Part shown: positions 1,668 through 6,725 of the stretch, in pieces
Position numbering within the stretch: the stretch's first letter is position 1
Layout: each line of letters starts with the position of its first letter
From: Promethearchaeota archaeon
GTDB taxonomy: Archaea > Asgardarchaeota > Lokiarchaeia > Sigyniarchaeales > SOKP01
Length of the DNA stretch: 64,000 bases
Assembly (NCBI GenBank): GCA_030599585.1
Contig: JAUVNS010000004.1
Coordinates: 256,001 to 320,000, forward strand
Reading direction: 5' to 3'
Made by a program: the position numbers and the translations under genes
The notes under the pieces: generated by a model
Database searches by the model: none
Told to the model about the DNA's origin: nothing
What the model saw: the letters and a program-made list of their open reading frames with translations, nothing else

Positions 1668-3317
1668 TCACCATGTAGTTTCTCTTTTCAATAGTTTAAA
1701 AATATAAGAATCAACAAGTGCGTTCCACGATGCTACAATGATATTCTCATGTGTTCCAACTGTGCCCCATAATTTTCCGTTATCATTCGTTTCAACTAAT
1801 ACTCTCACTTTTGAGGCACTTCCTGCTTTATTAATTATTCTAACTTTAAAATCAGAAAGATTTATTTCTTTTATACTTGGATAAAAGTGAACTAATGCCT
1901 TTTTAAGAGCATTGTCTAGCGCATTTACTGGACCATTTCCGTCAGCAGCAGTATGATATTCTTGACCTTTAACTTTTACTTTAATAGTTGCTTCAGATAT
2001 TAAATTTGTTTTATACATTTCAGTAAGTACTCGAAATCCTTCTAACTCAAAAAATTTCTTCCTATAATAATCCGGATCTTGAATATTCATATCCATACTT
2101 CTCATAATAATTTCTAAGGAACCTTCTGCACCCTCATAAACATATCCTTCTTTCTCTTTTTGTTTGATTACTTCTAAAATTTCAGCAACTTTTGGATTCT
2201 CCTCCGTTAAATGCATACCAAATTTCTTAGACATGTGCAATATTGAACTTTTACCCGCTAATTCTGAAATCTTTATATTTCGAGAGTTTCCTACCAATTC
2301 GGGATTTATTTGTTCGTATGTTTTTAAGTTTTTACGCATAGCTGAGATATGAACACCTCCTTTATGCGAAAAAGCGTTTTTTCCTACAAAAGGTTGATTG
2401 CTATTTCCCGACAGATTGGCCATTTCGTAAATGAAGTGCGAAACTTCAGTGATATTTTCTAAATCTTCGCTAGATATGCAATCAATCCCCATTTTTAATT
2501 TCAGAATTGGCAAAATTGTTGTTAAATCAGTATTACCACATCTTTCACCAAAACCATTTATCGTACCTTGAATCATTTTAGCACCATGGTGAAAAGCCTC
2601 TAAAGCAATAGCGTTCGCAACACCAGAATCATTATGAGCATGAATTCCTAAATGAGCATCCGTTCCTAAAAAATCTTTTACTTTATCAAATATTAGACCT
2701 AATTCGGTTGGTAAAAGACCACCGTTAGTATCACATAGAACTATCCATGATGCACCTGCATTAAGAGCACAAGAAATTGTCTGTAAAGCATATTGTTCAT
2801 TATTTTTAAACCCATCGAAGAAGTGCTCAGCATCATATACGACCTCAATTCCATTTTTCTTTAAAAAGATAATTGTATCTTCAATCATGTTAAGATTTTC
2901 TTTTAAACTAGTCTCTAAGGCGACCTTAACATGCAAATCCCAGCTCTTCCCAAAAATTGTGGCATGTTTTGTGCCAACGGTCAATAAAGATTTCAAGTTT
3001 TTGTCATCTTCAGCCTTAATATCCTTATGTCTGGTGCTCCCAAAAGAAAAAATCTTCGTCCCATTTGAATTAATATCCATGGTTTTAATCTTATTATAAA
3101 GCATAATGTCTTTTGGATTGGAACCGGGCCACCCAACTTCAATCATAGGAACATGAAGATCGTTAATTAACCGTTCGATAATTCGAATTTTATCCTCGAC
3201 TGAAAAGCTAATTCCTATTTTTTGACTTCCCTCACGAAGGGTTGCATCATATATGTAAACACCATTATTTTTGATCAATACTTTTTTCACCAATGAATGA
3301 AACATTAAGAAATTCAA
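1668..3317 (-). CDS. cimA: Citramalate synthase (LeuA-related DRE-TIM enzyme with C-terminal regulatory domain). Start uncertain: ATG 3305, GTG 3290, or TTG 3278 after GGTGA
   Basis: YDATLREGSQ, GWPGSNPKD, FGKSWDLHV, YDAEHFFDG, LCDTNGG, HAHND, GERCGN, HKGGVH, GNGPVNALD: pattern of the bacterial-type CimA clade. Confidence 0.88.
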   Translation of the reverse strand: MNFLMFHSLVKKVLIKNNGVYIYDATLREGSQKIGISFSVEDKIRIIERLINDLHVPMIEVGWPGSNPKDIMLYNKIKTMDINSNGTKIFSFGSTRHKDIKAEDDKNLKSLLTVGTKHATIFGKSWDLHVKVALETSLKENLNMIEDTIIFLKKNGIEVVYDAEHFFDGFKNNEQYALQTISCALNAGASWIVLCDTNGGLLPTELGLIFDKVKDFLGTDAHLGIHAHNDSGVANAIALEAFHHGAKMIQGTINGFGERCGNTDLTTILPILKLKMGIDCISSEDLENITEVSHFIYEMANLSGNSNQPFVGKNAFSHKGGVHISAMRKNLKTYEQINPELVGNSRNIKISELAGKSSILHMSKKFGMHLTEENPKVAEILEVIKQKEKEGYVYEGAEGSLEIIMRSMDMNIQDPDYYRKKFFELEGFRVLTEMYKTNLISEATIKVKVKGQEYHTAADGNGPVNALDNALKKALVHFYPSIKEINLSDFKVRIINKAGSASKVRVLVETNDNGKLWGTVGTHENIIVASWNALVDSYIFKLLKRETTW

Positions 3318-3370
3318 ACCCAGAAAAGATAAGAAAAGGATGGTAAAAAAGAGTTTAAAATTTCTTAATG
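3303..3370 (-). promoter_or_regulatory. Inverted repeat/hairpin enclosing a U-rich tract in the cimA leader (putative attenuator)
   Basis: Perfect 12-bp arms CATTAAGAAATT (3303-3314) and AATTTCTTAATG (3359-3370), extendable across a bulge. The minus-strand loop reads CTCTTTTTTACCATCCTTTTCTTATCTTTTCTGG. Confidence 0.6.
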
Positions 3371-3373
3371 AAA

Positions 3374-3439
3374 TTAAATAATCCCAATAATAATTAATAA
3401 AATACTAATACCTACTAGCGGAATTAATCTTAATCTCAT
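3374..3439 (-). CDS. Putative Ile/Leu-rich leader peptide of cimA (MRLRLIPLVGISILLIIIGII)
   Basis: ATG 3439 to TAA 3374. Contains 8 Ile (all ATT), 5 Leu and 1 Val in 21 codons. TATA-like box about 25-32 nt upstream. Lies directly 5' of cimA on the same strand. Confidence 0.65.
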   Translation of the reverse strand: MRLRLIPLVGISILLIIIGII

Positions 3440-3463
3440 AATTAGAATAAAAAAAACCCGATG

Positions 3464-3479
3464 CTTTAAAACCTTTATC
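3464..3479 (-). promoter_or_regulatory. Archaeal BRE/TATA promoter for the leader-cimA transcript
   Basis: Minus strand GATAAAGG-TTTTAAAG: a purine-rich BRE-like run followed by a TTTTAAA box, spaced so that the TSS falls at or near the ATG at 3439 (leaderless). Confidence 0.5.
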
Positions 3480-3713
3480 ATTGGGAGCATAAAATTAAAT
3501 TTTCTATATAAATCTGAGTCGTATGAGGGTAAAGGATCAGCGACTAATATTCCCATGTTGTCAACTTGCCTTTTATTATTTTAAATTGTCTGATTTATTC
3601 ATCTATCAATCGATAATTTTATTAATCCCCTATAGAAATATTTCATAATCAAAAATTAAACAAAAAATCAATACAAAATTTTTAAAAATAATTAAGACGA
3701 GGTGTATCGTCAT

Positions 3714-4508
3714 ATGAAAAGAGAATTTGCTATCTTAGGATTAGTAATAGCTTTAGGAGTGGGAATATTAGGCGGTTGGTTTATTCCATCGCCTATTACA
3801 ACTCCAGAAGCCCCTTCCCTACTTTCTGTGATTAAAACAAGAGGTACTATAAAAGTTGGCACAAGTGCGGATTATCCTCCATTTGAAAATTATAACGTAA
3901 CTTTAGACCTGATTGAGGGATTTGATATAGATGTTACGGAAATGATAGGTGACGCTATTAATGTCACAGTTGAATGGAGTGACATCCCTTTTGATAACCT
4001 TATTGGTGCTTGTTTATCAGGTGAAATTGACATGATTGCAGCAGCAATGAATTATAACGAGGAACGTGCTCTACAACTTGCCCCATCTTCAACATATTTC
4101 GCTGTTAGCCAAGCTGTAATAGTAAAACAAAGCTCTTTGCTCACTATTACAAGTTTAGATAATCTTACAAACTATCAAGTTGGTGTACAATCTGGTACCG
4201 TAATGCAGGACGATTTAGAGGCTATAGGGATGACAGTAGGTATCAATCTTACAACCTTTTCTAGAGCTGATTTGCTTATGGCAGATCTAGATATTGGAGG
4301 TATCGATGCCGCCTATGTTGATGAACCAATTTTTGCCGCTTTTAATCGAACCTATGATTTTAAAATCATTCTTAGTACTCCTTCTGAACCTTTAGCTTTC
4401 TGGACAAGATATGGAGAACCCGAACTTTTATACGAAATAAACAATGTCATCCTTGATGGGTATGAATCGGGTTGGATCTATGGTACGATAACAACGTGGT
4501 TTGGATGA
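3714..4508 (+). CDS. Polar amino-acid ABC transporter substrate-binding protein (SBP family 3)
   Basis: N-terminal TM anchor; VGTSADYPPFE, GFDID, VGVQSGT. ATG 3714 follows GAGGTG. Confidence 0.9.
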   Translation: MKREFAILGLVIALGVGILGGWFIPSPITTPEAPSLLSVIKTRGTIKVGTSADYPPFENYNVTLDLIEGFDIDVTEMIGDAINVTVEWSDIPFDNLIGACLSGEIDMIAAAMNYNEERALQLAPSSTYFAVSQAVIVKQSSLLTITSLDNLTNYQVGVQSGTVMQDDLEAIGMTVGINLTTFSRADLLMADLDIGGIDAAYVDEPIFAAFNRTYDFKIILSTPSEPLAFWTRYGEPELLYEINNVILDGYESGWIYGTITTWFG

Positions 4509-5194
4509 GCGAAACTCCAGACCTTTCAACTATTTTTTTTTATATTATTACTAGGGGATTACCCAATACACTAGTTCTAACTATATTCGGCTTAATTTTA
4601 GGTTTTTTGCTAGGTTTAGCTCTGTCATTAATGAGTGTTTATGGATCTATAGAGCTAAGATGGTTAGCGAGTGGTTATGAGAAGTTATTGAGAGGAATCC
4701 CAATCTTGATTCTGATTTATATATTTCGTTGGGGGATGCCAGGGCTATTTTGGTATTTTGAAAGTTCCCTGGATCGGGGTTTAGCAAGCGTGGTGTTAGC
4801 CCTTGCTCTCCGTAGTGGAGCCTACCAATCACAAATATTCCGCGGAGCAATTTTATCTGTTAATCCTGGACAAATGGATGCTGGTTTTGCTTTAGGAATG
4901 ACGCGATTCCAAGCCTTTCGCCATATAGTAATGCCTCAAGCATTACGATTAGCCGTGCCTGGATGGTCGAATGAATATGCAGTAGTTATAAAAGACTCGT
5001 CTTTCGCATTAGATGTTGGAATTTTCGAAATGACAAAGGCAGCAAACCAATTAACAGTAAATTATCCACAACTACTAACGATGACTATGGTTGTTGCTGC
5101 AATTATTTATTTTTTGTTTACATTTCCTATAACAAAATTTATTGGTGATCGTCAAACCAAAAAATTAAAGGATTTAGGAATGGGAGGAAATTAA
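4505..5194 (+). CDS. Amino-acid ABC transporter permease
   Basis: RGIP, EAA-loop-like PGQMDAGFALGM, PQALR, IKDSS. ATGA overlap with the SBP stop. Confidence 0.9.
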   Translation: MSETPDLSTIFFYIITRGLPNTLVLTIFGLILGFLLGLALSLMSVYGSIELRWLASGYEKLLRGIPILILIYIFRWGMPGLFWYFESSLDRGLASVVLALALRSGAYQSQIFRGAILSVNPGQMDAGFALGMTRFQAFRHIVMPQALRLAVPGWSNEYAVVIKDSSFALDVGIFEMTKAANQLTVNYPQLLTMTMVVAAIIYFLFTFPITKFIGDRQTKKLKDLGMGGN

Positions 5195-5988
5195 TGATGA
5201 GTAAGCCCGTTTTACGAATAGTAGATATATGGAAGTCTTATGAAGACTTAGAAGTTTTAAAAGGCATAAGTTTTGAGCTAGCAGAAAAACAAGTTATAGT
5301 AGTTTTCGGACCCAGTGGTTCGGGGAAAAGTACTTTATTGCGTTGTATTAACATGTTGGACCCTCCAGATAAGGGAGAAATATATCTCTCTGGACAAAGT
5401 TTTATGGAACCTGGTGTAAAGCTTAATAAAATGCGAGAAAAAATAGGTATGGTTTTCCAGCACTTTAATTTATTTGCTCACCTCAAAGCAATTGATAATG
5501 TTGGCATTGGTTTACGAAGGGTAAAAGGTTTTTCTAAAGAAGATGCTCGTTCAAAAGCACTTGAAGCGTTAAAACGTGTTAAAATAGCAGAATGGGCAGA
5601 TCACTATCCCGCACAACTTTCAGGCGGTCAACAACAACGTGTAGGTATTGCACGTGCTTTAGCAATGGAGCCTGATTTGATATTATTTGACGAGCCTACC
5701 TCTGCTTTGGATCCCGAATTAATAGGAGAAGTTCTTCAAGTTATGTTAGATCTTGCTAAAGCTGGAACTACCATGCTAGTTATCACTCACGAAATGGGAT
5801 TTGCTCGAGCAGTCGCATCAGAAATGATATTTTTAGATGAAGGAGTAATTGTTGAAAAAGGAACGCCAAAACATTTTTTTGAATCACCTAAATCTGAGAG
5901 AGTTAAACATTTTCTAAGGCAAATTGATATCTTATATGGACGACATGAGGAACTTCTTGAGCCATCAAATAGGGAGGTAAATAAGTGA
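5194..5988 (+). CDS. Amino-acid ABC transporter ATP-binding protein (GlnQ family)
   Basis: GPSGSGKST, MVFQHFNLF, LSGGQQQR, FDEPTSALDPE, THEMGFA. Confidence 0.95.
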   Translation: MMSKPVLRIVDIWKSYEDLEVLKGISFELAEKQVIVVFGPSGSGKSTLLRCINMLDPPDKGEIYLSGQSFMEPGVKLNKMREKIGMVFQHFNLFAHLKAIDNVGIGLRRVKGFSKEDARSKALEALKRVKIAEWADHYPAQLSGGQQQRVGIARALAMEPDLILFDEPTSALDPELIGEVLQVMLDLAKAGTTMLVITHEMGFARAVASEMIFLDEGVIVEKGTPKHFFESPKSERVKHFLRQIDILYGRHEELLEPSNREVNK

Positions 5989-6725
5989 TATTTCAACCCA
6001 GTTCCAACCCAATAGAGGATTTCTTTACAATTTTGACTTATTGGGATAAAATCTTTACTGGTTTTGTAATGACAATGTGGTTATATGCATGGGCACTTTT
6101 AATTGGATTTGCCATTGGTCTTATGTTGGCTATTTTACGACACTATGGTGGTAGGATAATATCTCCTATTGCAACCGGATACATTGAAATAGTGCGTGGT
6201 ACCCCAATGCTTGTCCAACTCTGGCTAATATACAGCCTACTCCTTAGACCGCTAGGACGAGGGGTCTGGTATACTAGCTTTGAATTCTTTGGAAGAGATA
6301 TCACACTAGTTTTTCTTAATGCTCGAATAATAATTTGTATAGTAACATTAAGTCTTAACAGTTCTGCGTATCAAGCTGAATATATACGTGGGTCAATATT
6401 ATCGGTTAGTACGGGACAGTTAACAGCCGCTCAATCTTTAGGTATGTCTAAAATCGCAAGTATTCGTCATGTTGTATTACCACAAGCTTTACGCCGAGTT
6501 ATTCCTTCATGGTCTAACGAAGCAGCTTATCTCCCAAAATATACTGTAATAGTTTCTATTATTGGTGTAGCAGATATATTTAATCAAGCTAAAAATATAG
6601 GATTTCAGACATTGCTCTATTTTCCTATTTATATATTTGTTGCAATTATATTTATAATTACAATATCACTTATTTCTAAAGCGTTGGACATCGTACATAA
6701 GCGAACTGCGATTCCGGGCTTGTGA
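5985..6725 (+). CDS. Amino-acid ABC transporter permease
   Basis: RGTPMLVQL, AYQAEYIRG, GQLTAAQSLGM, LPQALR. Confidence 0.9.
   Translation: MIFQPSSNPIEDFFTILTYWDKIFTGFVMTMWLYAWALLIGFAIGLMLAILRHYGGRIISPIATGYIEIVRGTPMLVQLWLIYSLLLRPLGRGVWYTSFEFFGRDITLVFLNARIIICIVTLSLNSSAYQAEYIRGSILSVSTGQLTAAQSLGMSKIASIRHVVLPQALRRVIPSWSNEAAYLPKYTVIVSIIGVADIFNQAKNIGFQTLLYFPIYIFVAIIFIITISLISKALDIVHKRTAIPGL

Follow-up and report, generated by a model that had tools for sequence, protein, structure and literature searches.

Leader-peptide attenuation, a textbook case of bacterial regulation, needs coupled transcription and translation. In archaea, transcription ends at oligo-U tracts and through FttA/aCPSF1, not at hairpin terminators. 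In the enterobacterial leaders ilvL (of ilvGMEDA), ivbL, leuL, trpL, hisL and pheL, a short open reading frame (ORF) rich in codons for the pathway product precedes a biosynthetic gene, a layout shared by the locus considered here, which lies upstream of the citramalate synthase gene cimA of an Asgard archaeon. Among the systems compared, the locus comes functionally closest to the leaderless short ORFs with polycysteine runs described in mycobacteria (Canestrari et al., bioRxiv 10.1101/834739). Our literature search returned attenuators from bacteria only and none described in Archaea, the sole archaeal mention being a general sentence in PMC10219788, and no publication describing the Asgard leaders was found. 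The window, a 64,000-nt stretch (G000:C40:256001-320000), belongs to a genome (G000) of 4.85 Mb with 33% GC overall and 26% GC in intergenic DNA. A sequence-only reading of this stretch had proposed that a translated Ile-codon leader and a hairpin regulate cimA in cis, and the idea survived the tests that the reading had set against it, considering that leader and hairpin recur in 26 of 27 loci, that Ile identity is retained and that a matching leader precedes leuA. We consider it likely that cimA is controlled from this region, which would act in cis as a ribosome-mediated sensor of Ile-tRNA supply.

The features of the region are, from upstream to downstream:
3464 to 3479, minus strand: B recognition element (BRE)/TATA-like element of the leader-cimA transcript, AAAGGTTTTAAAGC, read from the sequence, a putative promoter.
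3374 to 3439, minus strand: leader ORF of 21 codons plus TAA (ATG at 3439, TAA at 3374), encoding MRLRLIPLVGISILLIIIGII, read from the sequence and conserved in 26 of 27 orthologous loci.
3368 to 3439, minus strand: helix H1, the self-fold of the leader ORF, predicted by folding.
3351 to 3370, minus strand: 5' arm of hairpin HB, CATTAAGAAATTT-TAAACTC, with the conserved core GAAATTTTAAAC, from folding and an alignment of 26 loci.
3322 to 3350, minus strand: loop of HB, pyrimidine-rich with T6, T4 and T4 tracts resembling the oligo-U of archaeal terminators, from folding.
3303 to 3321, minus strand: 3' arm of HB, GGGTTTGAATTTCTTAATG, from folding and pairing over 26 loci.
3287 to 3291, minus strand: Shine-Dalgarno (SD)-like GGTGA of cimA, 8 nt 5' of the start, aligned with GGTGA/GGAGG/GTGAG in orthologues.
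1668 to 3278, minus strand: cimA, (R)-citramalate synthase, start codon TTG at 3278, from TIGR00977 and the start column of the alignment.

Observed directly at this locus and its relatives are a conserved, Ile-specific ORF, the pairing of HB, an exclusive link to cimA and a product-matched leader before leuA. The window ORF encodes 8 Ile, 5 Leu and 1 Val among its 21 codons, as had been described, and its frame stays open back to an ATG at 3556 (60 codons), the start kept in relatives being 3439 only. A comparison of its Ile density with random short intergenic ORFs, suggested in the sequence-only reading, was made against 3387 ATG-to-stop ORFs of 15-30 codons from the crudely defined intergenic DNA of G000. 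The 3439-3374 ORF is the only one of these with at least five Ile among its last six codons, its Ile fraction being attained by ten of the 3387, and IIGII(I)(I)-stop is encoded at only two sites in the whole genome. Taken alone, this genome-wide rarity is suggestive, and it is the comparison with relatives that decides.

Orthologous loci with enough upstream DNA number 27 and come from about eight genera of one family. In 26 of them a leader of 17-24 codons that fits the pattern M(K/N)..IIP..I-run..IIGII(I)(I)-stop lies 113-148 nt 5' of CimA residue 20. Among 24 distinct leaders, Ile makes up 54% of the residues (251/462), with Leu at 4%, Val at 3%, Phe at 1% and Met at 0.2%, while the G000 proteome contains 9.9% each of Ile and Leu. 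The AT-N codons comprise 194 ATT, 52 ATA, 17 ATC and a single ATG (264 in total), a scarcity of ATG with P ~3e-11 when 10% G is assumed and relatedness is left uncorrected. Leaders differ in length by whole codons only, start, frame and stop being preserved across the indels, and the number of Ile codons per leader extends from 8 in G000 up to 14 in relatives. These counts indicate that the selected trait is Ile identity, neither hydrophobicity nor plain AT-richness, which answers the earlier concern that hydrophobicity rather than Ile codons might be what is conserved.

The leader is one part of a larger cassette. Leader ORF, stop, a gap of 9-15 nt (9-10 nt in most loci), GAAATTTTAAAC, a pyrimidine loop and GTTTAAAATTTC occur together in 26 of the 27 orthologous cimA loci, so the leader and hairpin that the sequence-only reading expected before orthologous cimA genes are indeed present. 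In relatives, the layout downstream of the leader reads TTTCAT-AAAA-GAAATTTTAAAC, pyrimidine-rich loop, GTTTAAAATTTC, and the signature of this sequence family comprises the IIP...IIGII* leader, the GAAAUUUUAAAC stem and a leaderless start. The gene itself is found at 69-89% protein identity in 29 genomes of the wider family. A covariance model, R1, built from the leader end and hairpin and run on 135 family genomes, gave one match per genome in 28, each adjoining cimA or lying at a contig end where a truncated cimA is matched; the other 107 genomes gave no match, and all but two of those also lack a cimA match. Nowhere in the 135 genomes is there a second copy of the leader ORF. The cassette is thus real and far from chance, and it is linked exclusively to cimA.

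Pairing within HB was followed over the same 26 loci. The perfect 12-bp inverted repeat noticed in the sequence-only reading, CATTAAGAAATT at 3370-3359 with its complement at 3314-3303, starts 3 nt after the leader stop and encloses the T tracts named there (T6 at 3350-3345, T4 at 3337-3334 and T4 at 3327-3324); the helix in fact extends to 19 pairs with one bulge (3370-3351/3321-3303) and a 29-nt loop. In the window, HB folds with a minimum free energy (MFE) of -15.9 kcal/mol and a z-score of -4.4, none of 200 shuffles being equal, and the mean z-score over the 26 loci is likewise -4.4. Loops of the family measure 29-49 nt, are 56-88% pyrimidine and contain a T run of at least four in 24 of 26 cases. 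The 12 core pairs are paired in 96.5% of cells, with slid controls all far lower. One-sided changes in the core (n=13) are all wobbles on the cimA strand, 10 U-G and 3 G-U, and changes on both sides account for 4 cells; wobbles of the opposite strand, seen as A-C or C-A cells, number only 2. The one-strand bias together with the high pairing indicates that HB acts as an RNA helix on the cimA strand, and the variable spacing of the arms argues against a protein operator. In G000, the 3' arm carries a 1-nt deletion, owing to which an exact two-arm pattern search of its own genome missed even its own locus. The distance from the end of HB to the SD of cimA is 12-60 nt over the loci and 40-60 nt in relatives. 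Compared with the locus L188, G000 lacks, at about 3296-3302, an A-rich HB-SD spacer of about 27 nt that is present in all other family loci, and this spacer is probably dispensable.

When upstream short ORFs were screened across G000 for residue runs, a second leader came up, this time for leucine. MLIQKTTRIESRNSFAQFYPFLLLLLNLLLLLL-stop precedes C24:120282-121913, which is the 2-isopropylmalate synthase gene leuA (NF002085, 555 bits against a cut-off of 517); the leader has 33 codons, ends in FLLLLLNLLLLLL-stop (G000:C24:120100-120300; L246:303-460) and is directly followed by a GC-containing hairpin and then UUUU. In 28 of 29 family leuA loci, the leader closes with a Leu run and its stop is followed at 0-3 nt by a hairpin, whose sequence differs between loci. 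An Ile leader before cimA and a Leu leader before leuA in the same genomes are what a tRNA-charging sensor predicts, and they are very hard to explain otherwise. Other residue runs in G000 upstream ORFs (W, T, H, R, C) precede genes without an amino-acid biosynthesis family and were treated as chance, and for ilvB, G000 offered neither a gene above the family cut-off nor a convincing leader. Separately, a 31-codon TTG ORF ending RPARLRL-stop lies before argJ at G000:C40:252810-252905, about 3.1 kb before the window; with only three Arg codons it stands out far less than the leaders for Ile and Leu do.

Leaders of the same architecture also precede cimA in a sister family. Three loci (CimA ~50% identical; L009-L011 set) have MS..PQNTSI..KVGLGL..II.IIS.I..IIC-stop before cimA and, after a further 8-10 nt, the arms CUCUUUGC/GCAAAGGG of a hairpin that shows wobble variants and has a U-rich loop. 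A fourth has the leader MIPICIINLINILIIC-stop and the hairpin UCCUUGUC/GACAAGGA, again with a U-rich loop, and the stop-to-hairpin gap in the sister-family versions is 6-10 nt. One of the three PQNTSI-type loci sits in a closed genome of 6,035,313 bp (G059:C1:3543614-3543780; L244:315-480), its leader at about 3543614-3543727. Being unrelated in sequence and alike in architecture, the sister-family leaders represent independent re-inventions. Further cimA genes carry short ORFs at comparable positions: in L184 (metagenome contig Ga0207433_10000030, 33% GC), MKIRFPERNIIIIIEPLSGKG, with five consecutive Ile codons, lies about 125 nt before a 49%-identical cimA, and L131, L164 and L179 have Leu-rich ORFs at the equivalent position.

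The leader ORF is also predicted to fold on itself. In H1, the start codon AUGAG (AUGA(A/G) in the family) would pair with UUCAU just after the stop, and in the window UUAAUUCC (Leu-Ile-Pro) would pair with GGGAUUAU (Gly-Ile-Ile); most relatives have AUAAUUCC (Ile-Ile-Pro) instead of UUAAUUCC, the partner being GG(A/G)AUUAU (Gly-Ile-Ile). The fold has an MFE of -18.2 kcal/mol and a z-score of -4.2 in the window, with a mean z-score of -2.7 over 26 loci. Such pairing would account for the odd conservation of Pro, Gly and an AUA codon in the leader. RNAalifold on the leader alignment returned only 3 pairs and no H1 covariation, the columns being invariant.

Folding of this kind is the starting point of the rival explanation that survives best, which we regard as improbable: a structured 5' untranslated region working purely as RNA, through protein or metabolite binding or as a stability or processing signal, in which the frame would be a by-product of self-pairing AUU/AUA repeats. 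No features are better conserved than H1 and HB, and the folds of both are far stronger than those of shuffled sequences; the IIP and GII motifs are explicable as the strands AUAAUUCC/GGAAUUAU, as is the near-invariant AUA at one position, and UUCAU after the stop is invariant though non-coding. A region acting purely as RNA would nevertheless not be expected to keep start, frame and stop across whole-codon indels (17-24 codons) or to avoid ATG among AT-N codons. The sister-family leader, whose sequence is unrelated, is again Ile-rich, and the leuA element is Leu-rich, whereas nothing would lead an element acting only as RNA to match, in two cases, the product of the enzyme that follows.

Very unlikely, in our estimate, is that the ORF codes for a small hydrophobic membrane peptide with a function of its own, merely co-transcribed with cimA. 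The peptide has an anchor-like basic N-terminus followed by a hydrophobic stretch, and the N-terminal PQNTSI...SKVGLGL block of the sister family is kept through synonymous changes. Membrane helices, however, use a mix of residues, whereas Leu, Val, Phe, Met and Ala together contribute 42 of 462 leader residues (9%) against 54% Ile. In addition, the peptide has only 17-24 residues, is found solely beside a gene for a cytosolic enzyme with no second copy in 135 genomes, and has a Leu run instead in its leuA counterpart.

We give equally little credence to the view that the inverted repeat is a DNA element, its 5' arm being the real cimA promoter (BRE/TATA), its arms repressor half-sites and the ORF a separate unit. 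The sequence AAAAGAAATTTTAAAC does look like the A-rich plus TTTAAA elements found ~31 nt before the leader ATG, and further TATA-like runs occur in the A-rich spacer of some loci. Against this, the one-sided changes wobble on one strand (13 versus 2) and the arms are spaced 29-49 nt apart; cimA has an SD, as leadered or distal cistrons do; and the sister-family hairpin arms contain GC and are not TATA-like, a difference in sequence which argues that the 5' arm is not conserved merely as a TATA look-alike. A chance AT-rich ORF next to a chance palindrome, conceivable in intergenic DNA of 26% GC where this Ile fraction is attained by ten other short ORFs, is refuted for practical purposes by conservation in 26 loci, exclusive cimA linkage and the hairpin z-score of -4.4.

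For the Ile-tRNA sensor that we favour, leader translation, the transcription start, stalling and every step of the read-out, its sign included, are proposals drawn from sequence, and we agree with the earlier reading that sequence cannot settle the direction of the switch. A single promoter, with its TATA ~31 nt 5' of the ATG, would give a leaderless transcript with 21 leader codons, a 96-nt untranslated stretch containing HB, the SD and cimA. Before RNA polymerase has left the leader, the pioneer ribosome would load on the 5' AUG. Once complete and ribosome-free, the leader would fold into H1 and hide its start codon, implying that the decision would be made once, co-transcriptionally. With ample Ile-tRNA, the ribosome would reach the TAA, its footprint touching the post-stop nucleotides and the base of HB, and would then be released. 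With scarce Ile-tRNA, it would be held on one of the 8 Ile codons that form both strands of H1, leaving H1 open and HB untouched. This difference in ribosome position would set the amount of polymerase or of ribosomes arriving at cimA. Common to all versions of the element is a geometry in which the residue run stands at the end of the ORF and the next helix 0-10 nt after the stop, suggesting that in each version a ribosome at the stop would touch the base of the next helix and one held earlier in the run would not. The stronger claim, that a ribosome at the stop covers the 5' arm, is not supported, as its reach extends to the HB base only and the conserved core is, in most loci, 9-10 nt away from the stop.

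How ribosome position would be read out is a further matter, for which a factor- or stability-based mechanism is favoured with modest confidence. In the leading version, which keeps to the classical geometry and which we advance tentatively and by analogy, an upstream stall would let HB close over the pyrimidine/U-rich tract, and a stop-bound ribosome would delay HB and lead to an early end through FttA/aCPSF1. Closed HB would protect the untranslated gap, exposed U/C-rich RNA would end transcription early, and the end would come from the factor FttA/aCPSF1, not from intrinsic oligo-U termination. Alternatively, H1 itself could be the OFF element, prevented by any ribosome stalled on its Ile codons, which would explain why Ile codons fill both H1 strands. 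Two read-outs put forward in the sequence-only reading were not supported. Exposure of the U tract by HB cannot serve as an intrinsic-termination switch, because HB forms only after its own loop U tracts have been transcribed and hence cannot gate termination at them; and HB switching would not expose the cimA start region, the start TTG at 3278 lying outside the 3' arm.

Other candidates were tried and set aside. A ribosome pushing the polymerase at T6 fits in its distances, the polymerase standing at 3350-3345 while the ribosome decodes Gly-Ile-Ile-stop, and has the wrong sign. A helix P1a:R2 (ATAAAAGAAA:TTTCTTTTAT) as alternative pairing beats shuffles (z < -1.64) in 9 of 26 loci only, against 1 of 26 in the control, and is weak in the window (7 bp, -4.4 kcal/mol). 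The loop as an anti-SD shows strong complementarity, yet no better than that of shuffles. No helix over the cimA SD or start is shared among the loci, HB ending at 3303, ahead of the SD (3291-3287) and the start (3278); in the window, the SD is predicted to be covered by a small UUUCAUU:GGUGAAA helix, which is not general among loci.

Several observations weigh against the sensor or its read-out. The G000 leader is the least Ile-rich of the family set (8 Ile, 5 Leu). The H1 columns are near-invariant and partly coding-constrained, and their 93.8% pairing is no better than that of shuffles. A 2:3-type helix between the 3' end of the leader and the 5' arm of HB does no better than shuffles (mean z -0.4 over 26 loci), no pairing partner was found for the HB 3' arm, and the loop:SD complementarity is compositional only, with a mean z of 0.08 against shuffles. 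Equilibrium folding predicts that HB forms at any ribosome position, because the conserved core begins at the end of the footprint of a terminating ribosome. Only about 9 of 26 loci have a T run of at least four behind the HB 3' arm, and the window has none there (TTAATGTTTC); with the T tracts inside the loop and few T runs 3' of it, HB is not a canonical intrinsic terminator. Models of the coupling type predict the wrong sign, with less cimA under Ile starvation. Finally, the HB 5' arm (AAAAGAAATTTTAAAC) is similar to the leader's own BRE/TATA and might conceivably contain an internal promoter.

The assignment of the downstream gene as citramalate synthase holds: CimA scores 678.2 bits against the TIGR00977 equivalog (cut-off 450), so that the 678 bits bear out what had been claimed, and the LeuA models score below their own cut-offs. 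The sequence-only reading had pointed to ATG 3305 in the HB 3' arm, which is in frame, but the true start is TTG 3278, 25 nt further downstream, aligning with an invariant ATG/TTG column in 26 orthologues where GGTGA or GGAGG precedes. The cimA frame is open for 100 codons 5' of TTG 3278, through HB and into the Ile run (a 578-aa open frame), because of which gene callers will start cimA too early, at TTG 3317 or ATG 3305, masking the regulatory region and missing the leader. The open frame in G000 also prompted us to consider a frameshift fusion of leader and CimA, which was rejected, the frame being closed in most relatives.

Upstream, AAAGGTTTTAAAGC is present at 3479-3464, where a TATA-like element had been placed, and the TATA-like hexamer recurs in ~20 of 26 orthologous loci, starting 29-34 nt 5' of the leader ATG. 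Comparison of the 26 loci revealed no SD for the leader. This spacing and the absent SD are consistent with a leaderless or near-leaderless mRNA having the leader as first cistron. Inspection of neighbours at the family loci found leader and cimA mostly bordered by opposite-strand genes, suggesting that the two usually form a transcription unit of their own and would be co-transcribed. Divergent from the leader, at 3702-6725, lies a polar amino-acid ATP-binding cassette (ABC) transporter operon (binding protein, permease, ATPase, permease), whose start region is conserved in congeners at 82-85%. Synteny with the congener G005 breaks at about 3685, just 5' of this operon, and congener synteny resumes there. 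A genus-level DNA search of the intergenic region found the leader not conserved in congeners, because none of 41 congeners has the G000-type cimA; leuA of G000 was found in none of 11 sampled congeners. The cimA and acyl-CoA dehydrogenase block of G000 has a collinear counterpart in L188, which comes from a different genus and whose CimA is 89% identical. Presence of cimA and leuA in G000 and not in congeners possibly reflects intergenus transfer, loss from the congeners or faulty binning, the contamination estimate being 8.9%. The nearest named CimA record belongs to a Promethearchaeota metagenome-assembled genome (L029, 71%) whose locus is identical to L211 of the family; L029 alone was useful, the metagenome scan with CimA and most of the genome-contig scan returning only relatives at 53% identity or below. 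An Rfam search of 3150-3750 gave no relevant match at E up to 10, amino-acid leader families being unmatched.

Compared with classical attenuators, the locus has a short ORF before an amino-acid gene in 26 of 27 loci and a product-codon enrichment of 54% Ile; it lacks exclusive alternative helices, H1 and HB being adjacent and not competing as mutually exclusive 1:2/2:3/3:4 helices would, and it lacks an intrinsic terminator before cimA. The helix sequestering a downstream SD or start, typical of translational attenuators, is likewise absent at cimA. As in the enterobacterial systems, the position of the stop brings a terminating ribosome into contact with the following helix, the leader itself takes part in a helix further upstream, and separate product-matched leaders exist, here Ile for cimA and Leu for leuA. 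Unlike those systems, the element stands in an archaeon, behind a TATA promoter and with a leaderless start. A GC-rich stem running into a U tract ahead of cimA is missing, the U tracts being placed within the loop of HB; no 2:3/3:4 alternative pairing is supported, and no sequence or Rfam relationship exists.

With the mycobacterial Cys ORFs and with ermC/cat, the locus would share control by the position of a held ribosome, and with the former also a leaderless first-cistron sensor, a run of cognate codons and several loci answering to the same amino acid. In both of those systems, the stalled ribosome blocks an SD-sequestering duplex, whereas no helix covers the cimA SD or start; and H1 would close the leader to further rounds of translation, a point in favour of a co-transcriptional decision, unlike in the mycobacterial and ermC/cat cases. 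As in E. coli tnaC and Salmonella mgtL/mgtA with Rho, the position of a leader ribosome could gate pyrimidine-rich RNA for a termination factor. This is offered as an analogy only; the archaeal factor would be FttA/aCPSF1. Perhaps, and this is a speculative generalisation, an Asgard order uses product-matched, ribosome-read leaders (Ile for cimA, Leu for leuA, possibly Arg for argJ) with an archaeal read-out in which the pioneer ribosome decides whether HB closes over oligo-U and hence whether FttA/aCPSF1 terminates. Leader attenuation, in independent Ile and Leu versions, would then stand in the archaeal lineage closest to eukaryotes, and a eukaryote-like termination machinery (oligo-U plus FttA/aCPSF1) would be read out by a leaderless pioneer ribosome once per transcript. 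As the bacterial terminator design is absent, the system would expose how ribosome position controls archaeal polymerase or mRNA. If true, Archaea would thereby gain their first described case of ribosome-mediated attenuation, one that works differently from the terminator/antiterminator switch of bacteria.

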